Part shown: positions 2,980 to 59,705 of the stretch, piece after piece
Layout: each line of letters opens with the position of its first letter
How positions within the stretch are numbered: position 1 is the stretch's first letter
Assembly (NCBI GenBank): GCA_964392865.1
Contig: CAYMRJ010000001.1
Span: 71,263-135,262 of the forward strand
Origin: an uncultured Staphylococcaceae bacterium
GTDB taxonomy: Bacteria > Bacillota_I > Bacilli_A > RFN20 > CAG-826
Direction of reading: 5' to 3'
Length of the DNA: 64,000 nucleotides
Notes under the pieces: generated by a model
What the model was told of the DNA's origin: nothing
The model's input: the letters and a program-made list of their open reading frames with translations, nothing else
Database searches by the model: none
Made by a program: the position numbers and the translations under genes

Positions 2980-3391
2980 TTAGATGCTCCTTTCAAGACC
3001 GTTATCACTTTGGCGATCTCGAATGGACCATCCATAGCTCCTCCAAGGGGATCTTCCCTTGGGAGTTTACGGGGTATTCCCCCGTAACCCAACTCGTCGG
3101 CGCTTAGGCAGTTGCCCCGGCGGTTTCGGCGTTCTTGCTTTTCATCTTCCCCCGTTCTGCCGGTGGGAGAAGGCTACTCGTCCGTAACGCTCCTCTATAC
3201 GATCTCGGGCGTATTTTCCAAACGCCGGGCTTAATGTCAATCCCAATTTTTCCAATGCCGGACTCTGGCATTCGAAAAAGACCCGAAACAATGAGGACTT
3301 CGGGGCAAAGACACTGAAAATATTTAGTGATTTGTAAATCTAGTCATTGAAATGCACCGCCAACCGATTTTAATAACGCGCATACCGGAAG

Positions 3392-5386: not shown

Positions 5387-6310
5387 TTATGCCTTGGGAA
5401 GGCCGGTGACGGGATCGAGTTCGATGCCGTTAGAGGACTTCTTCTCCTCCTTCTTTTCTTCGCTTGCGGCCGGGCGGATCTGGCCTTGGTTGGCCTTGGC
5501 CTGGGCGATGAGTTCGTTGATGAGCGGGATGTAGATGGCCCGGAAGGCGGGTTCGACGTCGCGGACGTAGAGGGCGATGCTGTCCTGGGTATCCTTGATG
5601 ACGTCCCCGAAGTTCTTCCCGGCGGGGAGGTCCCTCCTCCCGGTCATCATTTCGCAGAGTTCGGTGACCTTGTCTTCGACGTTCTTGTAGGCCGAATCGG
5701 TCAGGTGGCTATTGGCGCGCACCCCGTTGATCAACGCGATGATCTTTCCGATGTCGCTGCCGATGAAGCGGCTGGAGGGCGATTCCTCGCCCTTGGCTTC
5801 GCGGCGGGCCTGGTTGTAATCGCCGAAGAGCTTGCAGAGATCGGCGACGGTCGTCATGAAGGCGACCCCGCAATAGAGACGGTTTTCGGCGATGTAGACC
5901 TTTTCGGCCTCGGTAACATCCATCTTCTTGTTCTTCGCGTCGCGGATGATCCCGGCGATCATGGCCGAGACGTTGTTATGGATGACAAGCGCCCCTTCGT
6001 AGATGGCCAGATGCTGGGCGTGGTCGACGCGGAGGCCGTCATCGGCGAGCTTCAGGATGGTGGATTCGTCCCCGTAGACGGTCTCGTAGAATTCGCGGAT
6101 CGTCTTTTCGAGCTTCTCGCCGTTTTCCCCGGAGTGGGAAAGGATCGACTTGAGCGGGGTATTCTGGTCGACTTCGACCAATATCGAGCGCTTCTTCTCG
6201 TTATAGGCCCTGGCGTCGTAGGTGTCCTTCTTCAGGCAGTACTCCAAAGTGTCGCGCAGGACGACGTTATAGTGGATCAGAGTGGTGATTACTTCGCTGA
6301 CGTTATTCAT
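5387..6310 (-). CDS. Hypothetical soluble protein (about 307 aa), no recognisable family
   Basis: Chosen start MNNVSEV (ATG at 6308-6310) overlaps stop of upstream HAD gene (ATGA); longer ORF-track start would overlap HAD gene extensively. Confidence 0.5.
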   Translation of the reverse strand: MNNVSEVITTLIHYNVVLRDTLEYCLKKDTYDARAYNEKKRSILVEVDQNTPLKSILSHSGENGEKLEKTIREFYETVYGDESTILKLADDGLRVDHAQHLAIYEGALVIHNNVSAMIAGIIRDAKNKKMDVTEAEKVYIAENRLYCGVAFMTTVADLCKLFGDYNQARREAKGEESPSSRFIGSDIGKIIALINGVRANSHLTDSAYKNVEDKVTELCEMMTGRRDLPAGKNFGDVIKDTQDSIALYVRDVEPAFRAIYIPLINELIAQAKANQGQIRPAASEEKKEEKKSSNGIELDPVTGLPKA

Positions 6311-7176
6311 TTTTCCTTCTTTCCTTCCTTCTCCTCCCTCGGGTAGACGAAGTCTTGAAGTTCGTGGAAGCGCCTGATGATGTGGCTCGCCCTTTTCTTG
6401 ACGGACTCGGGCCCGTGGCTCATGCAATAGGAATTGCCGGGAAAGGCCTGGAACATCGAAATGTCGTTCCCGGAGTCGCCGACAACCAGCACATTATCGC
6501 GATTGAAGCCCTTGTGTTCAAGATAGAAGGCAAGCCCTTCGGCCTTGCTGCACCCCATAGGGGTGATTTCGATGCTGGTCCCGATCCAGGAGAACTCGGC
6601 CCCCGGGAACTCTTCCCTCAGGAACCTATTGGCCTCCATCGCCTTCTTCTTCTGCTTCTTCGTGAAGCCGAAGTAGACCATGATCTTGTAGATCTTCCCC
6701 TTCCTTAGCTCTTCCCTGAAGATGTGGTCGCTTCTGACAAAGGGTTCCTTGTAGGTCCCCATGACCCACTGGTAGAGGAAGTAACCCAGATTGGTAATGT
6801 GGCTGACATCCGTCCGATTGAGGACGAGGTTCCGATCCTTCGTCATCAAGAGGAAGAGGGGCGGGTTGAACTTCTCCCGCATGAATTCGACGATGTGCTG
6901 GGCGAAGTCGGCCGGAAGGAATTCTTCCTTGATCAGTTCCCCGTCAGAAACGACAAAGGCCCCGTTGCAGCCGACGATCCCGACGTTTTGCCTTAGCTTC
7001 TTCCCGACTTTGTTGCTGACGTAGCGGTTCCTGCCGGAGCAGATGACCATCTCCCCTCCGTCATTAAGAAAGGCCTTAAGGAACTTCCGGCTCTTCCTGG
7101 GGATCAGGGAAATGGGGGCTCTAGGATAAAAGAGCGTCCCATCTAGATCCGTGGCGATCACTTTGTCGGTAGACAC
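6307..7176 (-). CDS. Cof-type HAD-IIB family hydrolase/phosphatase
   Basis: Motif I DLDGTL, motif IV GDSGNDISM; 289 aa. Confidence 0.8.
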   Translation of the reverse strand: MSTDKVIATDLDGTLFYPRAPISLIPRKSRKFLKAFLNDGGEMVICSGRNRYVSNKVGKKLRQNVGIVGCNGAFVVSDGELIKEEFLPADFAQHIVEFMREKFNPPLFLLMTKDRNLVLNRTDVSHITNLGYFLYQWVMGTYKEPFVRSDHIFREELRKGKIYKIMVYFGFTKKQKKKAMEANRFLREEFPGAEFSWIGTSIEITPMGCSKAEGLAFYLEHKGFNRDNVLVVGDSGNDISMFQAFPGNSYCMSHGPESVKKRASHIIRRFHELQDFVYPREEKEGKKEK

Positions 7177-7257
7177 GGAGCAATCATAGTAAAAACGCCG
7201 CCCTTTTGCTAGAAAGCAAAAAGCCGGGGCGAGGGCCCCGGCTATTCTAGCTATGCC

Positions 7258-7812
7258 TTAGGCGACTTTGTTTTCGGCCTGGATGACGCCGTAGCCCAAA
7301 TCCTCGCGGCGGTAGCAGACGCTGATCTGGTTGTCGTCTTCGTCGAGGTAGAGGAAGAAATTATGGCCGAGGGCCTCCATCCTCGTGATGGCCTCGTCGA
7401 GGTTCATGGGCTCGAGGTAGTAGCTCTTGGTGCGGACGACTTGCTCCGCCTCTTCGTTTTCTTCTTCTTGCTTGAAGTTTTCGAAGGCGATGGCCTTGCC
7501 TAGAGACGTGGCTTCGTCCTTCCTTCTTTCGACGCGGGTCTTCAGCTTCCTCATCTGCCCTTCGAGCTTATCGATGGCGAGGTCGAAGGCGGCGTAGAGA
7601 TCGTCGTTCCTGACTTCGGTGCGGAAAACCATCGGCTTGGTGAAAATGGTGATTTCGACTTTGGCGCCGACTTTGTAGCTTCTGACGACCGCGCGGCACA
7701 AAACTTCCTCGTTGCTAAGGAAATACTTGTCCATCCGCGCAAGCTTCTTCGTCACCGCTTCCTTGATGGCGTCGGTGACACTGATGTTCTTGCCGATGAT
7801 CTGGTACTTCAT
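7258..7812 (-). CDS. hpf: Ribosome hibernation-promoting factor (long form)
   Basis: 184 aa; N-terminal RaiA/YfiA domain plus C-terminal dimerisation domain typical of Firmicutes HPF. Confidence 0.85.
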   Translation of the reverse strand: MKYQIIGKNISVTDAIKEAVTKKLARMDKYFLSNEEVLCRAVVRSYKVGAKVEITIFTKPMVFRTEVRNDDLYAAFDLAIDKLEGQMRKLKTRVERRKDEATSLGKAIAFENFKQEEENEEAEQVVRTKSYYLEPMNLDEAITRMEALGHNFFLYLDEDDNQISVCYRREDLGYGVIQAENKVA

Positions 7813-7922
7813 CTATGTCCTCCTAGGGTTTCCCCTGCTGATTTCATTTTAAGGAAATGCCGAAACCTGACAATAGGCACGGCCCATTTATTTAGCGAAG
7901 TTTCGGCTTAAGGCCTAACAAG

Positions 7923-9107
7923 TTAGGCGATTTTGCTCTTCTTCGAAAGTAATTCTTTTATTTGCTCGACCTTGTCGAGGCGCTCCCAAGGTAGATCCAA
8001 GTCGGGACGCCCGAAGGCCCCGTAGACGGAGGTGTCCCGATACTTGAATGTCGGATGCCTCAAGGAGAAGGCTTCGATGATAGCCCCGGGCCGCGCATCG
8101 AAGACCTCGCCGACGATGTCCATGATGTCTTGGTCCGAGTAGTGCTTGCTATGGAAGGTGCTGACCGAAATGGAGAAAGGCTCGCTCATCCCGATGGCGT
8201 AGGCCAGCTGGATCTCGAGGCGGTCGGCCGCTCCGGCCGCCACCAGGTTCTTGGCCATGTACCTCGCATAATAGGCGGCCGACCTATCGACCTTTGTCGG
8301 GTCCTTGCCGGAGAAGCTTCCGCCTCCGTGGCGGCAGGCGCCCCCATAGGTATCGACGACGAGCTTCCTGCCGGTCAGGCCGGTATCCCCGAGGGGACCC
8401 CCGATGACGAATTGGCCGGTCGGATTGACGTAGACTTCGAAGTCGTCATTGAGGCCGAAGGATGTAGCGACCGGCACCATCACCTCTTCCCTGATGAATT
8501 TCTTGTAGGCCTCCATATCGATCCCGGGATTATGCTGGATCGACATGAGGATCTTGCTGATTCTGGGGTGGGCGGGATCGGCATAGTCGATGCTTACCTG
8601 GCTCTTCATGTCGGGACGGGCTTCGAGGAACTTGCCTTCTTTCCGTAGGCGTGTCGCCGTCCTAACGAGTTTGTGGGCAATCGAAATCGGCAAAGGCATA
8701 TAGCCTTCCGATTCCTTGGTGGCGTAGCCGAAGACGAAGCCCTGGTCGCCGGCGCCGTTGTCGAGGCTATCTTCCCTTTCGATCCCCATGGCGATGTCGG
8801 GGGACTGTTCCTTGACCCTGACGTCTATCTGGCACGTATCGGCCCCTAGTCCGATTTCCGGACTTGTATAGCCGATATCCCTGATGACCCCGCGGGCGAT
8901 CTTTTCGAAATCGACCTTGCCGCGGCAGGTGATTTCCCCGCCGATGAGGACGTATTCCTCGGTTGCGAAGACCTCGCAGGCCACGTGGCTCAAGGGATCG
9001 AGTCTCAGACATTCATCGAGGATGGCGTCCGCAATCTGGTCGCAGACCTTGTCGGGATGGCCTTCGGAAACCGATTCGGAAGTGAATATCGACGTCTTCT
9101 TCTGCAT
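7923..9107 (-). CDS. metK: S-adenosylmethionine synthetase
   Basis: GHPDK, GAGDQG, GGGSFSGKD motifs; 394 aa. Confidence 0.95.
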   Translation of the reverse strand: MQKKTSIFTSESVSEGHPDKVCDQIADAILDECLRLDPLSHVACEVFATEEYVLIGGEITCRGKVDFEKIARGVIRDIGYTSPEIGLGADTCQIDVRVKEQSPDIAMGIEREDSLDNGAGDQGFVFGYATKESEGYMPLPISIAHKLVRTATRLRKEGKFLEARPDMKSQVSIDYADPAHPRISKILMSIQHNPGIDMEAYKKFIREEVMVPVATSFGLNDDFEVYVNPTGQFVIGGPLGDTGLTGRKLVVDTYGGACRHGGGSFSGKDPTKVDRSAAYYARYMAKNLVAAGAADRLEIQLAYAIGMSEPFSISVSTFHSKHYSDQDIMDIVGEVFDARPGAIIEAFSLRHPTFKYRDTSVYGAFGRPDLDLPWERLDKVEQIKELLSKKSKIA

Positions 9108-9119
9108 GGGGATTCTCCT

Positions 9120-9265
9120 TTGCTGGCAAAAGCCTCCCCGACCTCGGGGGAGAGTCTCCCATCCTCCATCGTTCCGCGGCGGGGGCGGCTAGGGGAAGCA
9201 CTTACCGCTATCGCGGAGTTGCTAGCCGCCTGATCCCCTGGACGCGGCTTCTTGATGGAGGCCTT
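9120..9265 (-). ncRNA. SAM-I (S-box) riboswitch leader with terminator, upstream of metK
   Basis: Minus-strand reads CTCCATCAAGAAG...GGCGGCTAGCAAC...GGTAAGTGC...GAACGATGGAGG (P1 CTCCATC/GATGGAG) then hairpin CTCCCCCGAGGTCGGGGAG + CTTTTGCC before metK ATG. Confidence 0.55.
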
Positions 9266-9337
9266 TTGCCTTAGGGCAAGTTTATGGAAGATCCCCTTCC
9301 CAAACAAGGAAAAAGGATCCCGATGAAACTAAAAGTT

Positions 9338-10306
9338 TCAGTAAGCGCCGTCCCAGATGAGATGGGCGGCGTATTCGTAGTCGATGAAGGGGTTCCTGTT
9401 CCCCTGCTTGGCATAGACCTTTTCGTTCCTCTCCCTCTCCCAATCGTCGACGGGATCGAGGTCGTTCCACTCGAGGTAGAGATCGACCGCCCAGCTGGAT
9501 AAGGAGGGATAGGTGTTCTTGCTGAAGGTGGAGAAGGAGGCGAAGGACGAAACGTAGTTCTGGTAGCAGGTCACCGTATAGAAGTAGGAGCGGGCGATGT
9601 CTCCTTTCCACTGATCGGGAACTTCGAAGACGGAACCGGAGAGGCCGTCGACGTCGCTCGTCCCGAGCATGCAGCCGTTGCTGCTGGTGTAGGTCGCCGA
9701 TTTCACTTCGGCATGCGGATAGTTGTCCCTTCTGTTATTCACATACCCATCGGTCGGATAGACGTTGAAGAGATCGCTTTTGAGGTTCGAATTGGCGCCC
9801 GTCGACTTGAAGATGGATTGGGGCGTGACGTGTTCGCGGTTGATGCCGGCCCCTTCGTAGCTATAGCTATTCTGCCCTTTGCTCGGAGGCTCGTGCTGAT
9901 ATGAAGAATACATGTCGACGATGTAGCCATCCTCATCGACATCCGTCGTGGCATAAGCGCTCCAGAGGTTGTCGTAGCCGACGCTGCTGAAGTTCTTGGA
10001 GATGAGATTGTATAGAGCCGTCTTCAAGGTCGCCCCGGTAGCGGTCCAATCGATGCTGCTGTAATAGGAAATGTCCGGCGGTTCCGGAGTGGAATCGGCA
10101 GGCGTTTCTTCCGAAGATTCGTCGCTATCGATAGCCGAAGATTCGGTGCTTTCGATAGCCGACGACGATTCTTCGGCAATTGTCGAAGAAGTACCTTCTC
10201 CGGTCGATTCAATCGACGAAGTGTCATCTACCACGCAGCCGGACAAGGCAAAAGCCAAAGCCAAAGAGAGGCAGGCGAGGATTTTGAAACTAGGTTTCTT
10301 CTCCAT
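9338..10306 (-). CDS. Secreted lipoprotein nuclease, Endonuclease I (EndA/Vvn) family
   Basis: Lipobox LSGCVV; matches EndA blocks: NREHVTPQS (EHVVPAW), DLFNVYPTDGYVNNRRDNYP, GDIARSYFYT, WERERNEKVYAKQGNRNPFID. Confidence 0.75.
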   Translation of the reverse strand: MEKKPSFKILACLSLALAFALSGCVVDDTSSIESTGEGTSSTIAEESSSAIESTESSAIDSDESSEETPADSTPEPPDISYYSSIDWTATGATLKTALYNLISKNFSSVGYDNLWSAYATTDVDEDGYIVDMYSSYQHEPPSKGQNSYSYEGAGINREHVTPQSIFKSTGANSNLKSDLFNVYPTDGYVNNRRDNYPHAEVKSATYTSSNGCMLGTSDVDGLSGSVFEVPDQWKGDIARSYFYTVTCYQNYVSSFASFSTFSKNTYPSLSSWAVDLYLEWNDLDPVDDWERERNEKVYAKQGNRNPFIDYEYAAHLIWDGAY

Positions 10307-10361
10307 AAGGGCACCTAAACCTTAAGACACGTTGTTCGGAAAAGACAAGAGAACGAAGGAA

Positions 10362-11795
10362 TTATAAGTAAGCGCTGTCCCAGATCTGGTGGGCGGCATC
10401 TTTGTTATCGATGAAGGGGTTGCGATTTCCTTGAAGGGAATAGACCTTTTCGTTTCTCTCCCTTTCCCAATCGTCGACCGGGTCCTCATCATTCCATTTG
10501 AGGTAGAGATCGACCGCCCATTCGGAAAGCGAGGGATAGGTATTGCCGCTAAAGGTGGCAAAGCTTGAGTAAGAAGTCAAATCTCCTTGGTAGCAAGTGA
10601 CCGAGTAGAAGTAGGAACGGGCTACGTCCCCCTTCCACTGATCGGGCACTTCGAAGACGGTACCGCTTAGTCCAGTGGTAGCGCTGGTGCCGAGCATGCA
10701 GCCATTGCTGCTGGTGTACGTTGGTGTAGTCGATTGATCGACCTCGGCATGCGGAAAACTAGATCTTCTGCCGTTCACGTATCCGTCGGTCGGATAGACG
10801 TTGAAGAGATCGGAATAGATGTTTCCGCTCTCCGTATTGAAAACGGATTGGGGGACAATGTGCTCGCGATTGATGCAATCGCCCTCCTTCGAATAGTTCT
10901 GTCCACCGGTCGGGGGTTCGTGCTTATAGGAAGAGTACATGTCGACGATATAGCCATCGTCATCGACATCGGTCGTGGCGTAGGCGCTCCAAAGGTTGGT
11001 GTATCCTACGGATTTCACTGTGCTGTTCAACAACTCATACAAGTCGGTCTTCAATTCGGCTCCGGTTTTGGTCCAATCGATGCCGTCGTAATAACTGGGC
11101 AACGAGGAAGTGTCACTCGAAGACGAGCCGGTCGAACTCGACGAAGAGGAACTAGACGATGAGCTGGAAGAAGAACTAGACGACGAGCTGGAAGAAGAAC
11201 TGCCGGCATCGCCAATCGCACTGTCTTCGTTCAGCGTGAAGACGATTTTGTAGAGGTAAAAGCGCTGGGACTTGGCCGAATTTGAAATCGTTATCGACGA
11301 TGTCTCGCCATCGGGGAATCCGCTGAATATGTAATGGCCGTCACCAGAATAGGCGGTGAAATCCGGAGCGTCGGTATTGTCGACCGTAGTGGAATAAACG
11401 GTTGACGAATTCGACAGTTCAAGATTCAACGTGACATTGTCGCTGCCATATTGGCTTGCCAGAATTCTGATTTGGGTAATATCAAGGCTTTCTGCGAAGG
11501 TAATGGTAAGAGAACCAGTGTTATTGGAGCTTCCAAAGCGAAGGGCATTTCCCTCGTTTGGCTGGAAAACGCTAGAGACCGAGAATGAAGGAGTCGCGAG
11601 ATTGGTTACGGTGTAATACGGTTGGGCCGCTGTTCCGGTGTTATCGGTTGTTTCTCCGAAATAGATATCCGCACATAAATAAGAACCCTCCGTTTGCGCA
11701 ACGGAGGGGACGGCGGTTATAGAGGCAACGGCACCCAATATGACGGTGGAAACCGCAGCAATCGAGATGAGGAGATAACGCGGTTTGATTGCCAT
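10362..11795 (-). CDS. Secreted Endonuclease I family nuclease paralog with extra N-terminal beta-rich domain and poly-Ser linker
   Basis: Signal peptide; about 200-aa unknown N-domain; 23-residue Ser run; C-terminal domain near-identical motif set to 9338-10306 (NREHIVPQS, GNRNPFID). Confidence 0.75.
   Translation of the reverse strand: MAIKPRYLLISIAAVSTVILGAVASITAVPSVAQTEGSYLCADIYFGETTDNTGTAAQPYYTVTNLATPSFSVSSVFQPNEGNALRFGSSNNTGSLTITFAESLDITQIRILASQYGSDNVTLNLELSNSSTVYSTTVDNTDAPDFTAYSGDGHYIFSGFPDGETSSITISNSAKSQRFYLYKIVFTLNEDSAIGDAGSSSSSSSSSSSSSSSSSSSSSSSTGSSSSDTSSLPSYYDGIDWTKTGAELKTDLYELLNSTVKSVGYTNLWSAYATTDVDDDGYIVDMYSSYKHEPPTGGQNYSKEGDCINREHIVPQSVFNTESGNIYSDLFNVYPTDGYVNGRRSSFPHAEVDQSTTPTYTSSNGCMLGTSATTGLSGTVFEVPDQWKGDVARSYFYSVTCYQGDLTSYSSFATFSGNTYPSLSEWAVDLYLKWNDEDPVDDWERERNEKVYSLQGNRNPFIDNKDAAHQIWDSAYL
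11131..11201. repeat. Tandem 24-bp repeat (GAACTAGACGA[T/C]GAGCTGGAAGAA x2 plus partial copies) encoding the poly-Ser linker
   Basis: Two adjacent 24-nt units at 11149-11172 and 11173-11196 differing at one base, flanked by partial copies. Confidence 0.6.
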
Positions 11796-14323: not shown

Positions 14324-14408
14324 GCGGGAATGGCGGAATAGGTAGACGCGTACGTTTGAGGGGCGTATGGAGCAATCCATGCCAGTTCGATTCTGGTTTC
14401 CCGCACCA
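14324..14408 (+). tRNA. tRNA-Leu (anticodon GAG), type II with long variable arm, CCA encoded
   Basis: Acceptor GCGGGAA/TTCCCGC, D-arm like the Leu(TAA) tRNA in this window, anticodon loop TTGAGGG, T-loop TTCGATT, ACCA 3' end. Confidence 0.8.
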
Positions 14409-19955: not shown

Positions 19956-20030
19956 GGATGCTTAGCTCAGCGGGAGAGCATCGCCCTTACAAGGCGGGGG
20001 TCAGAGGTTCGAACCCTCTAGCATCCACCA
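19956..20030 (+). tRNA. tRNA-Val (anticodon TAC)
   Basis: Acceptor GGATGCT/AGCATCC, anticodon loop CTTACAA, T-loop TTCGAAC, CCA encoded. Confidence 0.85.
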
Positions 20031-20060
20031 CCTTGATAGAAAACGTGCACGACATAGCGT

Positions 20061-20144
20061 GGGTGAATAGCGAAGTGGCCAAACGCGGCTGACTGTAAAT
20101 CAGCTCCTTCGGGTTCGGTGGTTCAAATCCATCTTCACCCACCA
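20061..20144 (+). tRNA. tRNA-Tyr (anticodon GTA), long variable arm
   Basis: Acceptor GGGTGAA/TTCACCC, anticodon loop CTGTAAA, variable arm TCCTTCGGGTTC, CCA encoded. Confidence 0.8.
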
Positions 20145-20151
20145 TTTTTAT

Positions 20152-20226
20152 TGGGGTGTAGCCAAGCGGTAAGGCAAGAGACTTTGACTCTCTCATGCGC
20201 TGGTCCGATTCCAGCCACCCCAGCCA
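20152..20226 (+). tRNA. tRNA-Gln (anticodon TTG)
   Basis: Acceptor TGGGGTG/CACCCCA, anticodon loop CTTTGAC, near-identical to Firmicutes tRNA-Gln, CCA encoded. Confidence 0.85.
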
Positions 20227-20232
20227 CGGGTA

Positions 20233-20308
20233 CCTCCGTTAGCTCAGCTGGTAGAGCACTTGACTTTTAATCAAGGGGTCGACGGTTCGAACCCGTCACG
20301 GGGGACCA
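20233..20308 (+). tRNA. tRNA-Lys (anticodon TTT)
   Basis: D-arm AGCTCAGCTGGTAGAGC, anticodon loop CTTTTAA, T-arm GACGGTTCGAACCCGTC, CCA encoded. Confidence 0.85.
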
Positions 20309-20315
20309 TTTAGGG

Positions 20316-20400
20316 GCCCTGGTGGCGGAATAGGTAGACGCAAGGGACTTAAAATCCCTCGGGGAAACCCGTATCGGTTCGAGTCCGATCCCGGGCACCA
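20316..20400 (+). tRNA. tRNA-Leu (anticodon TAA), type II
   Basis: Acceptor GCCCTGG/CCCGGGC (one mismatch), anticodon loop CTTAAAA, long variable arm, CCA encoded. Confidence 0.8.
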
Positions 20401-45789: not shown

Positions 45790-46115
45790 ATCCGGCCCTG
45801 TAAGCCATGTTCTGTCGAGGACGTAGATTAATCTCGGACTAGCCGGGAAGTTCGGCTTCGTTTCGCCTCCCTTCCTTCCCCTACCAAATTTGGGTTTCTC
45901 GCTTGCGGGGTTTGCCTCGTTTCATCTTGGCGTCGCCGCCAAGCTCGTCTCTGTGGTACCTTAGCGGCCTTGCTCCACTTGGGAGATCGGCCGGCCGTTA
46001 CGCGCTCCCGCGTACCCAGGCTTATCGCTTCGCCTGGCGCAATCACTACGGCCATCGCAGGCCGTGCGAGCATGGACTTTCCTCTGGTTTCCCAGCCTCC
46101 GTCCGGGCCGGATGT
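45790..46115 (-). ncRNA. rnpB: RNase P RNA (type B)
   Basis: Minus strand contains AGAGGAAAGTCCATGCTCGCACGG (P4 5' strand) and ACAGAACATGGCTTACAGGGCCGG near 3' end; P1 pairing CCGGCCC/GGGCCGG; immediately downstream of gpsB as in B. subtilis. Confidence 0.75.
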
Positions 46116-52945: not shown

Positions 52946-53653
52946 TGCCTTGGCGGCTTTGATGAAGCGGTGGGTATAGCGATAGACGATGAAAGTCAGA
53001 AGGATGACGATGGCGTCCTTCAAGAGATTGAACGGCAAAACGGCATAAAGCCCATAGCTCCAGCCGATGTCGGTGATCCAAGGCATGGCCAATTGGCAGA
53101 CGGCCAAAAGGCTTTCTTCGTCCATGCCGGCCATGACGTTGGCATAGAAAGGCATGAGGACATAGACATTCATGATCAGGGCGACCAGAAGCTGAAGCAA
53201 AGTCCCGACGCCAAAGCCGATGGCCACCCCCTTTAGGTCCCTCTTCTTCCTATAGATATAGGAACAAGGGACGACGAAGAAGATCGAGATGACGAGGTCT
53301 CCGAGTTCCCCGACTCCCATGCTGGTCGTCATCGGAAGCTTCACGAAGGTCTTTACCAAGATGGCCCCGATGGCGGCATAAGGCCCATAGGCGAAGCCGG
53401 CGATGAAGCAAGGAACCTCGTCGATATGGATGGCGAGGAAACTCGGGAATATCGGGATCGAGAAGTTGAAGATCGGCACGACGTAAAGGATGGCGGCCAG
53501 GGCGCCGAAGAGCGCCGTGGCGGCCACGGTCCTCGTGGTCGTTTTGTGCTTGATGGGATGGGCTTTGAAGTAAACGTAAGCGGTGCAAACAAGGAGGATT
53601 ATGAAGACGATAAGCGCGCAAATACCCCTTATATCCATAAAAAATACCCCCAT
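52943..53653 (-). CDS. ribU: ECF transporter S component, probable riboflavin transporter RibU
   Basis: 236-aa 6-TM S-component-like protein directly preceded by an FMN riboswitch. Confidence 0.7.
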   Translation of the reverse strand: MGVFFMDIRGICALIVFIILLVCTAYVYFKAHPIKHKTTTRTVAATALFGALAAILYVVPIFNFSIPIFPSFLAIHIDEVPCFIAGFAYGPYAAIGAILVKTFVKLPMTTSMGVGELGDLVISIFFVVPCSYIYRKKRDLKGVAIGFGVGTLLQLLVALIMNVYVLMPFYANVMAGMDEESLLAVCQLAMPWITDIGWSYGLYAVLPFNLLKDAIVILLTFIVYRYTHRFIKAAKA

Positions 53654-53656
53654 GCA

Positions 53657-53806
53657 CCGCGGGGGATGAGTTCACGGCGATCTTCAATCCGGACTTTACC
53701 GTTGGCTCCGGAGTCTCACCGGATCGTGCCTAGACTTAGGCTCGCGGGCTATACCGCCAGTTGACGAAACTCTCGTCACCCTGATGCGAGCCTAATTCTA
53801 GTGCAC
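53657..53806 (-). ncRNA. FMN riboswitch (RFN element) with terminator-type expression platform
   Basis: Minus strand: CAGGGTGACG...CTGGCGGTATAGCCCGCGAGCC...CCGGTGAGAC...CCAACGGTAAAGTCCGGATTGAAGAT then hairpin CCCCCGCGGTGCATGGGGG + TTTTTT before ribU ATG. Confidence 0.7.
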
Positions 53807-53829
53807 TTGTCCTTATTGTCAAATAAGGC

Positions 53830-56800
53830 CTAGGAAATGTAGATGAAGCCGTCTTCGTCCTTATGGAGGCCGTGGCGCTTGTCGATGGCCTCGCGGAGGG
53901 CGTTCTTGATGTGGGTCTTCCGCTTTTCGCTTACGACTTCGTAGCCGAAGAGAAGGGAGACCTGCTTTATGAGATCGCTTTCGCTCATCTTCCCTTGGGC
54001 GTAGATGATGTCGCTGCAGGCGTTGCTGATCTCGATGTAGGAAATATCCTGGATGTCGCGCTTGTTCTCGCTCTTGTCGATGCGGTAGTAAGGCCAGGCC
54101 TCGGGCACGAAACCGGAGGGATAGTAGAAGGGTTCGCTGGTGCATAGCTCCGTGACCTTCGGGGTATCGCCGATGGCCAATTCGATCGAGGAGCGGAGCT
54201 TAATGCCGAGCGTCTTCTTGTCGAGGGCCTTCTTGGTCTTCTCCATGATGAGCCGCCTGGAAATCGGGCCTTCGGCATCGATGAGGCGCTTCACGGCCTC
54301 GAAGATCCTGACATCCTCGATCGAGGAGCTCGGCATATCGAGGTCGGCGTATTCGTAGGGAATCTGGTTCGGATAGAGGTTGACCTGTTTCCGGTTGAAA
54401 GAGACAGGGCCAGAATCGATGGTCCCGACATCTTCTTCGCCGACGGGTTCATTTATTTTGGCCACGATCTGGCGCACCACTTGATCGGGATGATCGAAAT
54501 ATTCGATCGACCAGAAGCGCATGAGGCGCCACCGGAGGTTCTTGAGGATGCTGGGCTGGACCAGGTTCCTATCTCTCGAAGTCGGGGTATCGCAGTAGCT
54601 AGGACCATCGAGCAAGATGCCCAAGGTGAACTTATCGGGATCGGCGGGATCGACGATGGCCAGATCGAGCCTGAAGGTCGAAGTCCCGAGGTCGACGACG
54701 GACTTATAGCCGAGTTTCTTGAGGTCCTCGGCCAGATATTTGGCGACCGTTTCCTTCCTGTCGTAAACGACGTTGCCTTGAAGATTCGGAAGGTAGGAGG
54801 TGCCTTCGGAAGCGAAGGTCAGGAAGTCCCGGAGGTAGCGGGCCCCTTCGTTCTTGGCCCTTTCGGCCCTGATCATTTCGGGCTTGATCGAAGAGAAGAC
54901 GATCATCTCCTCCCTGGAACGGGTGATGGCGACGTTCAAACGGCGTTCGCCCTTTTCCCTCGAAAGGGGGCCAAAGTTAAGCGAGAGGACCCCGGTCTTG
55001 GGATCGGGACCGTAGGTTACCGAGAAAAGGATGACGTCCCTTTCGTCCCCTTGGACGTTTTCGAGGTTCTTGACGAAGATCGACTCGCCGCCCGGATTGC
55101 TGTCGAGGCGGTTCTTCCCTTCTTCTTTTTCCAGCATGTCCATGATGAGGTTCTGCTGGGCTTCGTTGAAGGTGATGACGCCGATGGATTTCTGGCTGAG
55201 CTCGGGATCCTTGAGGCGGCGCATGACCTCGGCGACGATGGCCTTGGCTTCGTCCTTGTTGATGCCCTTGCCGCGCTCGTACTTCCCCTTTATGTAGCGG
55301 TATGAAACCGACTGCTTCTCGCTTTCCGGAGAAGGGAACGTAAGCAGGGTGTTCCCATAGAACTGGTTGTTGCTATAGGCGATAAGGGATTCGTGGCGGC
55401 TGCGGTAATGCCAATTGAGGCGGTTCCGCTTAAGGCCCATGACGATGGCGTCGTCGAGCAAGGACTCGAGATCCTCGTCGAGGCTCTTGAAGTAGTCGCC
55501 GCCTTCGATGGAACCGGAGACGTTGACGGCGAAGTAGTTGCTCGGCGGCATCTGCTGCTGGTCGCCGGCAATGACAATCGACTTGGCCCTGGAGATGGCG
55601 CCGACGGCTTCGCTGGTCGGAATCTGGCTGGCTTCATCAAAGATGACGACGTCGAACTTATCGGTGGGCTGGAGGAATTGGGCCACCGAAAGCGGCGACA
55701 TCAGGAAGCAGGGGCATAGGGTATGGATGAGATCGGAGAAGGAAACGAAGATGTTCCTTAGCGAGATGGAACGGCCGCCGCTACGGGCGATCTTCCTCAG
55801 CTGATAGACCTCGGTAGTCGAAGCGAGGTTTTCGGTAACCAAGGGGTAGGACTTGGTGATGCGGCTCGCCGTTTCGACGACCGAAAGGCGCTCCAGTTCG
55901 TTTAGTTCCTTCCCGTAGTCTTCGATGGTCTTGAGGACTTCTTCGCCGGAAAGGTTTTCGAGCTTGGCGTCCTTGGCGGCGTAGGCCACGGTCTTGTAGC
56001 AAAGGGCATTGACGTAGGCGTCGCGGAGCTCGAGGTCGCCGATACGGCCTTCCTCGTAGCTTTCGACGAGGCCTTCCGGAGAAACGGCCCGGCATTCGTC
56101 CAAAACGGTCAGGAACTTCGTCCAGCCGCCGAGGAGCCCTTCGTTTGCGATGACGTTACTAACCTTCTGGGCTTCCTTCTTGAAGTATTCGCGGTCGTCC
56201 GGATAGCGTTCGGTATCGAAGTCGAACTTGTTCCTTAACTGATCGCAGACGAAGGAGCGTTCCGATAGATGGCGACGCAGTTTCCGGTCATTGTCTTCCC
56301 AGAGTTTCGTGTAATCCCCGCCGGCTTTTGCGAGGATATCGGCCAATTTTTCGAAGTTGGTATTGCGGGCGCAGTCCATCTCGCGAAGGAGTTTTCCGAT
56401 CTTGATCGAAGCCTCATAGCCCTTCTCGATAGCTTCGTACCTTTCCGGTTCCCCGGGAAGGCTCGGGAAGATGAATTTCGGATAAGAGCCGAGGTTCTCG
56501 ACCTGCTTATGGAGATTGTCCAAAGCCTTGAGGCTTTCGACGGTAACAAGAGAAAGTTTCTTGTTCGGCTTCCCGCCTTCGAGGTAGTAATCCTTGAGGA
56601 TCTTCTGGATTTCCTTAAGCGGTTTCTTCCGCTTGAAGAGAGAAGCCTGAGTGAACTCTTCCTTCAGGTCGCTGAGTTCCCCGACCTCGGCCGAAAGGAT
56701 CGTCCGGTCGAAGGATTTGGTGACCTTCTTGGAAATGGTGGCGATTTCCTTATTGAGGCTCAGATACTTCCTGAGGGTATCCTCGGCATCGAGGAAGATT

Positions 56801-59652
56801 TCGCTCCCCACCTTGTCGGCGAGGATTTCCTTTTCCCCTTGGAGAATTTGCGAAAGTTCGACGAAGAGGTAGGCGTTCTTCCTCGTGGTGCTAAGACCGG
56901 GGAGATTCCTAAGGCAGTTATGGAGATTGAGGGCGAGTTCCCTATCGATGTCGACGAGGGGCGCCAAAGCCTTGGGAAGGTTTTCCCTATCGAGGAGCGA
57001 GTAATCCCTCTTCTGGTAGGGAACGAAGGGATTCTCGCGGTAGCCGCGGTTCAGGCGTGAATAGGCCGTGACCCTTTCGATGCCTTCGATGGCGGCATCG
57101 TATCTTTCCTTGGTGAGGCCGCGGACATAGTCCTCGCTTACCTCATAGAGGCCTTTGGCCTTGATGCTATCGAGATAAAGCAAGATGGCATCGTAGATCG
57201 AAGCGAAGAAGTTCTCGGGAACGTGGAGTTTGGAGAGAAGCGTATTGAGCTTCGTCCTCTTCTCTTCGACTTCGGCGGCCTTCTCCTTGTAGTCGCCGGC
57301 CCCTTCCAAGGGTCCGAGTTCCAAAAGCTTATCGATGGCTTTTAGGACATCGGTCTTGTTGGTTTTGACGCTAGATAGCTGCAGGCAGAACTGGCCGAGG
57401 CCCAGTTCGTCCAAACGGTTCTTTACGACATCGAGGGCCACTTCCTTTTCGGCCACGAAGAGGACCGATTTCCCATGGTAGAGGAAGTTGACGATCATAT
57501 TGGCGATCGTCTGGCTCTTCCCGGTCCCGGGAGGCCCGTCCATGATGAAGGACTCGCCGGCCAAGGCATCGGTGATGGCCTTGATCTGGCTGGAGTCGGC
57601 GGGTAGAGGCAAAGCCAAATCGCCCGGGACGACCTTGTCATCGAGGTCCTTGATTTCGATGAGGTCGGTTTTGTCTTCCCACTTCTTCTCGCCCGAAACA
57701 AAGGAGGCGATGAAAGGATTCTGGAGAAGTTCTTCCTTCCTATTGCGGAGGTCGTTCCACATGACGAAATGGGCGAAGCCGAAGAGGCCGGCCGAGGCCG
57801 TATTCTCGTAGAGCATCCAGCCCTTCTTCTCCGAGATCTTCTCGCGGATGAAGTTGTAGATGAGGCGCAGATCGGGAAGCCCGTCCTTCATGCGGAGAGT
57901 TCCGGAAATGGGAGAGAAGTCCATATGGAAGACTTCTTCCAGATACTGGAACAAAGTCGTATTGAGTGAGAGCTCATCGAGGTCGAAGGAGAAGGAATGG
58001 TAGGTCCCTGACTTCCGGCGCGGCAGCGAAATCGGAAGCAGGAAGACCGGGGCATACATGGCTCCGCGGTTGACGCTCGCGGCTTTGTCGTTATCGAACC
58101 ACTTGAGCATCCCGATTGTCATGAACAAGGGGTTGCTGCCGGATTCTTCGAGTGCCGTATTGGCCTTTCTGGCCAAGGTCTTGAAATAGGTATCGACGTC
58201 GCCGGTTTTGGAAGTGGCGAGGATCTGCCCTTTCCTATAAGCCTCTTCCGAGAGCTTCCCGAAGGCCTTCGGCGAGAAGGAAAGGATCTTCTCCCCTTCT
58301 TCGATGGCGATGGCTCCGAATTGGAAGGGAACGACCGACATCTTGTTGCGGGTCGATAGTTCCTTCACGAGGTCTTCGGCGCTCGGGACGATGAACTGGG
58401 CGAGGCCTCCGCCGAAACGGAGGTTGATCAGCCTATTCCCGAGATTGAGGTCGAGGAGTTTCTCAAGCCAATGGTCGAAGCGGTTCTTGTCGCCCCTATC
58501 TCCGGCCGAGATATAGCGGCGGGCATCGGTATCGACCGTCGGGGTCGCCGAGTCTTCAACTTTGGTGAAATCGGGCAGGTCGACCTTGTATTCTTCGCCG
58601 ACCTTATGGGGCGTCGGAATCGGGAGGAGGTGTTCCTTCCGGCACATCGTAACGTCCAAGGCGTAGCGGAACCTAGCTTCGACGGAAAGGGTCTTGTACC
58701 CGTTCTCGACGGCTTGGTCGAACGGCGATAGCTGGGAGGAATGGCCCATCGTCACATCGATGACGGCGAGATGCTCGAAGCCTTTGCTCGCCGCGGTGAT
58801 CAAATAAGACCCGTTTTCCTCATAGGGAGAGCAACTCGAATCATCGTCGAGCCAGACGCCGACCATGGCGTGGCTGCGGAGCAAAATGAGGACCGGTTTA
58901 AGGCCGATCGATTCGGCCAAGGATGCATAAAGCAGCGCAAAATCCAAGCAAGTCGCCACTTTTTCCTGCAAAACCTGATAGGGCAGGCGGACGCGCTGGA
59001 AGGTCTTTTCGAAGTTGGTCGGAGGGTTGCTGTAGCGGATGTCGCGCTTGGACATCGCCTTATAGAGAGCCTCCAGTTCCTCATAGACCTTGTTGGGGTC
59101 ATGGTACTGGTAGCCGGAGAAGCTGTTGCGCCCGGTCTTTTCCTTGAGTTCGCCGGCCGCTTCGGCAACGACCTTCTTCACTTCGTCGTCATTGGGAGTG
59201 ACGAAGCTGCTGAGGATCTCCGGAATACGGACATCGCTCGCGCTTTCTTCGATCGGAAGAAGTTTGAGGTTATGGACCTTCTGGGCCAGGCTTTGGCCTT
59301 CGCTATCGACGATCTCGAAAGAGAGGGCGCAAGGCACGCCTTCGTTCAGGTGATAGAGATCGACGGCGTTGACGAAGATCGAGAAGGAAGTCAGAAGGGT
59401 CTTCTTCCCGGCTTCGAGGACCGAAATATGAAGGGGCGCGACGGTAATTCCAGGGAAGTTGCTATTGATGAGGAGATCGACTTCCCTTAGGTCATGGGTT
59501 CCCCTGTTTTCGATGGTCACCGACCTGAGGAAAGAGAAGGCATTCTGCCTATTTTGTCCCGAGACTCTCTTGAGTTCGTTTTCGACCTGGTAATTTACAT
59601 AAGTAAATTCCTTAAGGCCTTCGATGGATATCAACAGCGTATTTTCTGACAT
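53830..59652 (-). CDS. Giant (1940 aa) multidomain protein: large N-terminal region + SF1B Upf1-like helicase + Vsr/DUF559-like nuclease-fold domain + DUF3320-like C-terminus
   Basis: Walker A GPPGTGKSQT (aa about 706-715), motifs VVIFDEASQ, RSRHESLI, GVITFNEAQ, VQGDERDVILFS, NVAITRSREE; later FRLDLAIVDP...LGILLDGPSY block; no TM segments. Confidence 0.7.
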   Translation of the reverse strand: MSENTLLISIEGLKEFTYVNYQVENELKRVSGQNRQNAFSFLRSVTIENRGTHDLREVDLLINSNFPGITVAPLHISVLEAGKKTLLTSFSIFVNAVDLYHLNEGVPCALSFEIVDSEGQSLAQKVHNLKLLPIEESASDVRIPEILSSFVTPNDDEVKKVVAEAAGELKEKTGRNSFSGYQYHDPNKVYEELEALYKAMSKRDIRYSNPPTNFEKTFQRVRLPYQVLQEKVATCLDFALLYASLAESIGLKPVLILLRSHAMVGVWLDDDSSCSPYEENGSYLITAASKGFEHLAVIDVTMGHSSQLSPFDQAVENGYKTLSVEARFRYALDVTMCRKEHLLPIPTPHKVGEEYKVDLPDFTKVEDSATPTVDTDARRYISAGDRGDKNRFDHWLEKLLDLNLGNRLINLRFGGGLAQFIVPSAEDLVKELSTRNKMSVVPFQFGAIAIEEGEKILSFSPKAFGKLSEEAYRKGQILATSKTGDVDTYFKTLARKANTALEESGSNPLFMTIGMLKWFDNDKAASVNRGAMYAPVFLLPISLPRRKSGTYHSFSFDLDELSLNTTLFQYLEEVFHMDFSPISGTLRMKDGLPDLRLIYNFIREKISEKKGWMLYENTASAGLFGFAHFVMWNDLRNRKEELLQNPFIASFVSGEKKWEDKTDLIEIKDLDDKVVPGDLALPLPADSSQIKAITDALAGESFIMDGPPGTGKSQTIANMIVNFLYHGKSVLFVAEKEVALDVVKNRLDELGLGQFCLQLSSVKTNKTDVLKAIDKLLELGPLEGAGDYKEKAAEVEEKRTKLNTLLSKLHVPENFFASIYDAILLYLDSIKAKGLYEVSEDYVRGLTKERYDAAIEGIERVTAYSRLNRGYRENPFVPYQKRDYSLLDRENLPKALAPLVDIDRELALNLHNCLRNLPGLSTTRKNAYLFVELSQILQGEKEILADKVGSEIFLDAEDTLRKYLSLNKEIATISKKVTKSFDRTILSAEVGELSDLKEEFTQASLFKRKKPLKEIQKILKDYYLEGGKPNKKLSLVTVESLKALDNLHKQVENLGSYPKFIFPSLPGEPERYEAIEKGYEASIKIGKLLREMDCARNTNFEKLADILAKAGGDYTKLWEDNDRKLRRHLSERSFVCDQLRNKFDFDTERYPDDREYFKKEAQKVSNVIANEGLLGGWTKFLTVLDECRAVSPEGLVESYEEGRIGDLELRDAYVNALCYKTVAYAAKDAKLENLSGEEVLKTIEDYGKELNELERLSVVETASRITKSYPLVTENLASTTEVYQLRKIARSGGRSISLRNIFVSFSDLIHTLCPCFLMSPLSVAQFLQPTDKFDVVIFDEASQIPTSEAVGAISRAKSIVIAGDQQQMPPSNYFAVNVSGSIEGGDYFKSLDEDLESLLDDAIVMGLKRNRLNWHYRSRHESLIAYSNNQFYGNTLLTFPSPESEKQSVSYRYIKGKYERGKGINKDEAKAIVAEVMRRLKDPELSQKSIGVITFNEAQQNLIMDMLEKEEGKNRLDSNPGGESIFVKNLENVQGDERDVILFSVTYGPDPKTGVLSLNFGPLSREKGERRLNVAITRSREEMIVFSSIKPEMIRAERAKNEGARYLRDFLTFASEGTSYLPNLQGNVVYDRKETVAKYLAEDLKKLGYKSVVDLGTSTFRLDLAIVDPADPDKFTLGILLDGPSYCDTPTSRDRNLVQPSILKNLRWRLMRFWSIEYFDHPDQVVRQIVAKINEPVGEEDVGTIDSGPVSFNRKQVNLYPNQIPYEYADLDMPSSSIEDVRIFEAVKRLIDAEGPISRRLIMEKTKKALDKKTLGIKLRSSIELAIGDTPKVTELCTSEPFYYPSGFVPEAWPYYRIDKSENKRDIQDISYIEISNACSDIIYAQGKMSESDLIKQVSLLFGYEVVSEKRKTHIKNALREAIDKRHGLHKDEDGFIYIS

Positions 59653-59705
59653 TGAAAGGATTATACCCTAAGGGGCTATAACCCTTTAAGAAGGGTTTTG
59701 GAAAT

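Follow-up and report, generated by a model that had tools for sequence, protein, structure and literature searches.

A giant ProA/PDC-S37-type DUF4011 helicase protein encoded between parB and ribU in uncultured Bacilli-like lineages, with a likely role in defence or surveillance

A stretch of 64,000 nucleotides (nt) from an uncultured Staphylococcaceae bacterium (assembly GCA_964392865.1, contig CAYMRJ010000001.1, positions 71,263 to 135,262), hereafter called the window, contains a giant open reading frame (ORF) between parB and a ribU-like gene. Sequence comparison identifies its product as a ProA/PDC-S37-type DUF4011 helicase protein, for which a role in defence or surveillance is likely by homology. 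We estimate a probability of roughly 0.55 that it is a defence or surveillance protein of this type which works approximately as in the mechanism proposed below. An initial annotation of the same DNA had presented the gene as a candidate single-gene defence system. Anti-phage catalogues do contain this helicase/nuclease-fold family, in line with that suggestion; however, the family is already known and named, and the window gene is no new kind of system. It is likewise no longer accurate that databases list this layout solely under domains of unknown function, as NCBIfam has models of ProA and Hhe, and PADLOC of PDC-S37 and Hhe. The layout itself was described in 2013 by Anantharaman et al. 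(PMC3710099), and a protein identical to the window protein is on record (P0001).

The NCBIfam equivalog NF058533 ('anti-phage protein ProA') aligned with residues 36–1905 in one collinear stretch (profile positions 6–1902 of 1903). The PADLOC candidate system PDC-S37 (PDLC05009), whose model has no curated cutoff, aligned with residues 390–1926 (profile positions 8–1535 of 1550; E = 5.3e-286, 950.5 bits). Matches to Hhe were found in residues 1240–1735 only for the PADLOC model (PDLC02194, E = 1.4e-128) and in residues 1038–1734 only for the NCBIfam model (NF042953), which gave 630 bits against a cutoff of 2000. At least 1,442 clusters (50% identity) among 1.84 billion representatives matched a profile of the N-terminal 395 residues at E ≤ 1e-30, nearly all of them of 1900–2300 amino acids (aa), the length class of the window protein. 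Judging from these matches, ProA-like giant proteins form a large and uniform family, and the ProA/PDC-S37 branch appears as a sister branch, within the DUF4011 helicase family, to the experimentally tested anti-phage protein Hhe. Hhe is reported to protect Escherichia coli from the phages lambda, T3, T7, and PhiV-1, and the mutation E1731A in its Vsr domain abolishes activity (bioRxiv 10.1101/2022.06.16.496414).

Four Pfam domains of the window protein exceeded their gathering cutoffs: DUF4011, AAA_11, AAA_12, and MTES_1575. Every motif quoted in the initial annotation was recovered in the 1940-aa protein at the positions given in Table 1. Its assignment of the core to an Upf1-like superfamily 1 (SF1) helicase was also borne out by AAA_11 (62.9 bits in two stretches, the first at residues 686–749) and AAA_12 (residues 1396–1588, 74.6 bits), both with cutoffs of 27, and the nearest solved relatives by sequence were IGHMBP2, Upf1/Nam7, and Sen1. 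The SF1 motif residues, including residues 706–716, are invariant in an alignment of 44 sequences. In contrast to a conserved housekeeping helicase such as RecD2, a possibility which the initial annotation had itself raised, the protein scored only 26.1 with the NCBIfam equivalog for RecD2 (cutoff 500) and 15.4 with that for RecD (cutoff 310), in the Walker A region only. No evidence of an RNA substrate was obtained for the window protein. The long insert within the core gave no Pfam match even at E values up to 10. Per-domain identity was used as the measure of conservation, synonymous sites being saturated at 64–75% protein identity; by this measure the insert and the C-terminal tail are the least conserved parts, with identities for the insert of 66, 64, and 52% in three orthologues and 26% family-wide.

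A nuclease-fold domain of the Vsr/DUF559 type, whose presence in the C-terminal third had been proposed, was confirmed by the MTES_1575 match (residues 1640–1733, 66 bits vs. a cutoff of 38.2). The full active site (D...ExDG...H...DRD) is not found in it: Asp1663, Asp1682, and Asp1694 are kept, with Leu1680 (codon 54613–54615) in place of Glu, Cys1687 in place of His, and Asn1696 in place of the final Asp. For reference we aligned the domain with the annotated Hhe of a Klebsiella pneumoniae plasmid (L096, 1911 aa), in which the first motif reads FFIDLAV (FRLDLAI in the window protein), the second GIECDGAAYH (GILLDGPSYC), and the third ARDRD (SRDRN). The initial annotation had noticed that the acidic residue is replaced, and the same holds for most members of this branch. 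In the alignment Leu1680 pairs with Glu1727 of K. pneumoniae Hhe, and because this Glu lies in the only E.DG of that protein, it likely corresponds to E1731 of E. coli Hhe. In the 44 ProA-like sequences, Asp1663, Asp1682, Asp1694, Arg1695, and Trp1708 are invariant; a hydrophobic residue (Leu, Ile, Val, or Met) always occupies position 1680, and His does not occur at position 1687. Among 103 homologues having the Vsr-fold domain, the Glu is absent in 65 and present in 8 of the 73 which also carry the N-terminal module described below, and absent in 3 and present in 27 of the 30 which do not, although these sequences are related, so that the numbers reflect clades and not independent events. 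The domain is one of the best conserved parts of the protein (86, 82, and 73% identity in three orthologues). As to the proposed DUF3320-like tail, two winged helices are predicted, the fold described for DUF3320 (PMC3710099); the Pfam model itself (PF11784) matched only below threshold (residues 1779–1806, E = 0.0098, 16.3 bits vs. 25).

The N-terminal region with its Cys/His block, which had been left unassigned, is instead identified as containing a transglutaminase-like domain. An AlphaFold model of residues 1–395, built from 17 aligned sequences, reached a predicted local distance difference test score (pLDDT) of 86 and a predicted template modelling score (pTM) of 0.82, and predicts a beta-sandwich (residues ~6–131) followed by an alpha/beta domain (residues ~144–340). 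Structures listed for this model include a putative protease (3kd4), TglA (9crn), PNGase (2f4o), and LapG (4fgo), as well as Rad4/XPC (2qsh), 3isr, and 4xz7; immunoglobulin (Ig)-like sandwiches were a second kind of match. Around the Cys, the Pfam models Transglut_core (20.3 bits vs. 23) and DUF553 (16 vs. 20.5) matched below their cutoffs. Of the 44 aligned full-length relatives, 40 keep Cys235, 43 keep Asp237, and 41 keep His261, and position 299, which might supply the third member of a catalytic triad, is always Asp, Asn, or Glu. The Cys/His block is thus the core of a transglutaminase/papain-like fold with conserved Cys and His residues. A subgroup (P0012, P0017, and P0020) which includes the protein encoded next to proS in L095 has Ser for Cys235 and Lys for His261; the catalytic pair is therefore not universal. 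In another locus (L092), a distinct protein of 448 aa with a full Transglut_core match (positions 8596–9942) directly precedes a 45% identical homologue (P0006), which also carries its own N-terminal transglutaminase-like module. Our literature search returned nothing relevant on a combination of transglutaminase and SF1 helicase.

Among the matches listed, homologues were present in Bacillota, Bacteroidota, Pseudomonadota, Actinomycetota, Planctomycetota, and archaeal metagenome-assembled genomes (MAGs), and none of 80 reference-genome loci (≤47% identical) had parB or ribU nearby. Hhe occurs on 565 plasmid records, 249 of them from Klebsiella, and the surroundings of the K. pneumoniae Hhe gene contain DUF262 genes, a type I restriction gene, and insertion sequence elements. 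A PADLOC scan of 124 flanking ORFs of 21 distant loci detected Wadjet beside one gene (L017) and DISARM beside another (L029), and little else worth noting. Another homologue (P0015; L093 is the locus with the AIPR/Abi-like neighbour) is encoded beside an AIPR (Abi-like) gene and one for a Macro domain. The patchy spread over phyla, the plasmid location of Hhe, and the proximity to defence systems are typical of defence genes and were counted in favour of a defence role.

We propose that this single polypeptide may act as a surveillance enzyme directed at the nucleic acids of mobile genetic elements. Foreign DNA or RNA would be held by DUF4011, the Vsr-fold domain, and the winged helices while the Upf1-like motor translocates along it, and the Cys-His transglutaminase-like domain would then act on protein, by proteolysis, deamidation, or cross-linking. 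Alternatively, the motor itself might clear or block foreign replication or transcription complexes. Such a protein-directed or mechanical output is favoured because the Glu and His present in Hhe do not occur in the Vsr-fold domain, and DNA cleavage of the Hhe type appears less likely.

The history of the gene in its own lineage was then reconstructed. The three closest homologues occupy the same site on long contigs, in the order parB, giant gene, ribU. Identities to these orthologous loci were 75, 73, and 64% for the giant protein, 73, 73, and 67% for MnmG, 76, 75, and 69% for ParA, and 60, 57, and 51% for ParB; that is, the giant gene diverges about as slowly as MnmG and ParA and less than ParB. 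Fixed synteny across the clade, which the initial annotation had listed as an argument against its own proposal, was indeed found within the window's clade, all four sampled lineages keeping the site. Three sister genomes, reached by a ParB protein search followed by contig look-ups (ParB homologues 48–50% identical), share the order suf-mnmG-rsmG-parA-parB-[X]-ribU-fdx-x-cmk-der-hup-cca-dnaD-nth-recU, where X is an ORF of 343–352 aa rather than the giant gene. The description of the giant gene as inserted into a conserved region therefore holds. The start of the sister ORF overlaps or abuts the parB stop codon; it lacks a Pfam match and resembles neither the giant protein nor anything else in the window. 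We considered whether this ORF of ~345 aa could be a remnant or precursor of the giant gene and rejected it, as no similarity was better than E = 0.07.

Identity matrices of MnmG, ParA, Der, and RibU separate a clade with the giant gene, ((window,(L002,L003)),L004), from one without it, ((L097,L099),L098); ParB alone was ambiguous. The tree of the giant gene agrees with the marker tree. The simplest reading suggested by these sequences is that the ancestor of the window's clade gained the gene once and passed it on vertically; loss in the sister clade may be the alternative. In the sampled lineages of the window's clade, the gene has been vertically inherited under purifying selection. Its G+C content (0.55–0.57) equals the window average, and a search for flanking repeats or element boundaries yielded only chance-level matches, which indicates that the acquisition is old.

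The names of homologues point to uncultured Bacilli/Erysipelotrichaceae-like MAGs. A second fixed site was observed in four loci of three lineages (L006/L014, L007, and L095), where an ORF of 590–607 aa is followed by proS and the giant gene. Prolyl-tRNA synthetase (ProRS) is 68% identical among them, whereas the giant proteins are only 38–49% identical, suggesting either a much higher rate of divergence of the giant gene than at the parB site or its replacement in situ. The distribution of the family is thus of a defence type at long range, while in Bacilli-like lineages its members are fixed beside housekeeping genes. A further homologue, 31% identical with 91% of the query covered, lies at positions 6075–11393 of MT836269.1, an unannotated 11.4-kb contig from human faeces labelled 'Bacteriophage sp.'; either a phage carries a homologue of the giant gene or the contig is misclassified.

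Several points weigh against a defence function that operates as proposed. The ProA score of the window protein (1481.9 bits) is 18 below the curated cutoff of 1500, and the NCBI pipeline would therefore not assign the ProA name to it; relatives at 36–46% identity exceed this cutoff (P0007, 1526 bits; P0015, 1590 bits; P0041, 1524 bits), and the orthologue P0004 (1448.7 bits) and P0010 are just short of it. The literature search found no experiment on the window protein or any ProA-type protein and no source paper for ProA or PDC-S37, so that the anti-phage label of this branch rests on database curation. There is no defence island around the gene, all neighbouring ORFs scanned being of a housekeeping kind, and one fixed site in four lineages with MnmG proteins only 67–73% identical is unusual for a defence gene. 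The transglutaminase-like triad has no assigned third residue, and both transglutaminase Pfam matches are below cutoff. Finally, the Vsr-fold domain, well conserved and with three invariant Asp residues, may still be catalytic.

This last point opens the way to a helicase-nuclease of the Hhe kind, an explanation which we regard as unlikely but as a serious contender: an active Vsr fold with a variant metal site (Asp1663/Asp1682/Asp1694) would destroy foreign DNA, and the transglutaminase-like domain would be a sensor or regulator. Neither the three Asp residues nor Arg1695 vary among 44 sequences with identities of only 25–75%, the Vsr-fold domain is better conserved than DUF4011 or the N-terminal domains, and the eight proteins that pair the N-terminal module with a canonical Glu/His site imply that the domains can work together. 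In addition, E. coli Vsr has no Glu at the equivalent position, with FTHG where DUF559 has ExDG, which we also count in favour of an active nuclease. On the other hand, Glu and His are both gone, and the third motif is DRN, DRH, or DRE rather than the DRD of Hhe; change of what is probably the same Glu (residue 1727 in K. pneumoniae and 1731 in E. coli, a correspondence inferred by us) abolishes Hhe function. The segment of residues 1685–1699, containing the would-be His and DRD, is modelled with pLDDT below 50, and relatives that lack Glu and His and carry HEPN (P0071, P0072, and P0074–P0076) have another effector at their disposal (PMC3710099). It is also conceivable, though rather improbable in our view, that the protein was domesticated after its acquisition as a housekeeping enzyme and no longer serves defence. 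It might then repair DNA, resolve roadblocks formed by proteins or R-loops, take part in Upf1/Sen1/IGHMBP2-type RNA quality control, or control the segregation of chromosome and plasmids beside parAB. The constancy of the parB-ribU position in all four sampled lineages, the MnmG- and ParA-like divergence (below that of ParB), the congruent trees, the host-like G+C content without flanking repeats, and the depleted nuclease site would all fit such a role, as would the location of relatives beside the housekeeping gene proS and the report of a large DUF4011 gene in the core genome of every Pseudomonas aeruginosa isolate (PMC10250203). However, four lineages only were sampled, and the sister clade lacks the giant gene in an otherwise identical gene order, so that the gene is not essential for the biology they share. 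The wider family is patchy across phyla with some members linked to defence systems, the divergence of the proS-site proteins relative to ProRS resembles defence-type turnover, and the RecD2 and RecD scores are far under their cutoffs. Our probabilities for an active nuclease and for domestication overlap with that given for the defence reading.

In a more specific form of this reading, a ProA-type giant helicase of a defence family with a depleted nuclease site could have been captured once into the parB-ribU slot and domesticated as a stably inherited, slowly evolving chromosomal gene. It would then serve the host, for example through the removal of roadblocks or foreign replicons in the vicinity of the partition locus, with the Cys-His domain as a protein-directed effector driven by the Upf1-like motor; we consider this doubtful. 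Least probable by far is a recent mobile-element cargo or homing-type selfish gene which came to lie beside parB by chance. The homologue on the 'Bacteriophage sp.' contig would be compatible with it, but the scanned neighbouring ORFs included neither an integrase nor a transposase, the site has no tRNA, and the repeats are at chance level. Host-like composition, occupation of the same site in four diverged lineages, and the congruent gene tree effectively refute a recent mobile-element origin.

Table 1. Coordinates of the giant gene, its parts, its neighbours, and the comparison loci (window positions unless a locus is named)
Feature	Position	Strand	Residues	Basis or remark
Giant ORF, ATG start, 1940 aa plus stop codon	53830-59652	minus		ORF listing; translation without internal stop
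Ig-like beta-sandwich	59248-59652	minus	1-135	
Transglutaminase/papain-like domain	58618-59247	minus	136-345	
Cys235 codon	58948-58950		235	
His261 codon	58870-58872		261	
Cys/His block motif CLDFALLYASL			235-245	
Cys/His block motif HAMVGVWL			261-268	
DUF4011	57940-58461	minus	398-571	Pfam PF13195, 86.5 bits, E = 2.5e-24, profile 1-158 of 158
Helicase domain 1A, first part, motifs I and Ia	57373-57597	minus	686-760	AAA_11 match
Motif GPPGTGKS			706-713	
Lys712 codon (GPPGTGKS)	57517-57519		712	
Insert between motifs Ia and II, ~530 aa	55783-57372	minus	761-1290	
Helicase core remainder, motifs II (DEASQ) to VI (NVAITRSR)	54853-55782	minus	1291-1600	AAA_11 second stretch, AAA_12
Motif DEASQ			1339-1343	
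Motif RSRHESLI			1417-1424	
Motif GVITFNEAQ			1491-1499	
Motif QGDERDVILFS			1534-1544	
Motif NVAITRSR			1573-1580	
Vsr/DUF559-fold (MTES_1575) domain, depleted active site	54448-54747	minus	1636-1735	
Vsr-block motif FRLDLAIVDP			1660-1669	
Vsr-block motif GILLDGPSY			1678-1686	
Linker and two winged-helix units (DUF3320-like tail)	53833-54447	minus	1736-1940	predicted fold
TATAAT box, 7 nt 5' of ATG	59660-59665	minus		sequence and conservation
parB, upstream neighbour, 294 aa	59706-60590	minus		ParB_N and HTH_ParB matches
FMN riboswitch of downstream ribU-like gene	53673-53791	minus		Rfam RF00050, 74 bits
ECF S-component, ribU-like, 236 aa	52943-53653	minus		ECF_trnsprt match
parB-giant gene spacer, window	59653-59705			compared spacer
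parB-giant gene spacer, orthologous loci	L002:9960-10000; L003:7955-8000; L004:5543-5588			compared spacers
Slot ORF of sister lineages	L097:9839-10870; L098:9840-10898; L099:9839-10873			
proS-site loci	L006:4700-13877; L014:2788-11765; L007:6117-15754; L095:6704-15724			

On the minus strand throughout, the locus reads MnmG, RsmG, ParA, ParB, giant ORF, flavin mononucleotide (FMN) riboswitch, energy-coupling factor (ECF) S-component, Cmk, and Der. The initial annotation called the region origin-proximal; neither dnaA nor oriC was seen in the window, where no search aimed at them was made, and relatives have the suf operon upstream of mnmG. The placement between parB and the FMN-riboswitch/ribU unit was correctly given in the initial annotation; of the span it assigned to the gene (53830–59705), the start stands, while the ORF ends at 59652 and the remainder is the 53-nt spacer to the parB stop codon. 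Similarly, the ORF is more than five times longer than the genes for ParB (294 aa) and RibU (236 aa), but not than those for MnmG (622 aa, a ratio of 3.1) or Der (434 aa).

The protein start MSEN/MAEN... is common to the four orthologues. Each of the four orthologous loci has a TATAAT or TATACT box 7–9 nt ahead of its ATG; this box is the sole conserved element of an otherwise diverged spacer, with a small hairpin after parB upstream of it; no Shine-Dalgarno sequence precedes the giant ORF. The giant gene probably has its own promoter, and a -10 box so near the ATG would fit a leaderless or near-leaderless mRNA. At the other end, the regulatory unit of the ribU-like gene (promoter, FMN aptamer, and hairpin; 53647–53822) begins directly after the stop codon of the giant ORF. 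It consists of a near-consensus promoter-like site at 53795–53822 (TTGACA-16-TAGAAT, 11 of 12 matching), the aptamer, and a terminator-like hairpin with a T-run at 53647–53665; no terminator-like site was seen between the stop codon and this promoter.

Plus-strand GC skew is ~0.09–0.14 over the giant gene (53500–59500) compared with ~0.0–0.07 in most other 4-kb blocks of the window, at equal G+C content, and may reflect amino acid composition. An Rfam scan of the window detected a class B RNase P RNA (45796–46110), which points to Bacillota, a lysine riboswitch (3027–3205), a lone tRNA (14324–14405), and a cluster of five tRNAs (19956–20397).

The window gene is a well-delimited additional example of a large family. 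For work on Hhe and ProA, it is relevant that the Vsr-type site is without its Glu and His in most members bearing the transglutaminase-like module, and that the conserved Cys and His make the transglutaminase-like domain a candidate effector. The core-gene-like behaviour at a fixed site in some uncultured Bacilli-like lineages, beside parB here and proS elsewhere, is a further feature of this branch.

Among known systems, the ProA model resembles the window protein from end to end, including the N-terminal sandwich and the transglutaminase-like module, whereas the PDC-S37 model excludes the first ~390 residues. Hhe, also a single-gene system, shares DUF4011, the split Upf1-like SF1 helicase with its long insert, the Vsr/MTES_1575 domain, and the DUF3320-type tail, and K. 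pneumoniae plasmid Hhe is 32% identical to the window protein over residues 1174–1735 and 468–777. However, only ~130 residues precede DUF4011 in Hhe, which lacks the transglutaminase-like module and keeps ECDG..YH..DRD where the window protein has LLDG..YC..DRN; Hhe is often plasmid-borne among restriction and DUF262 genes, unlike the chromosomal window gene. All the parts described for MTES_1575-type proteins (PMC3710099) were found in the window protein. MTES_1575 itself adds a HEPN (Swt1/Abi2) RNase domain, which a Pfam search did not detect in the window protein; relatives bearing HEPN are ~29–40% identical to it over a quarter to a third of its length. Finally, the eukaryotic helicases Upf1/Nam7, IGHMBP2, and Sen1 are similar at E ~1e-7, their listed best stretches covering only the Walker A region (residues ~672–772), and the IGHMBP2 family TIGR00376 matches at E = 4e-29. 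The likeness to Upf1-like SF1B helicases concerns the motor core only; the accessory domains, the 530-aa insert, and the size are unrelated.

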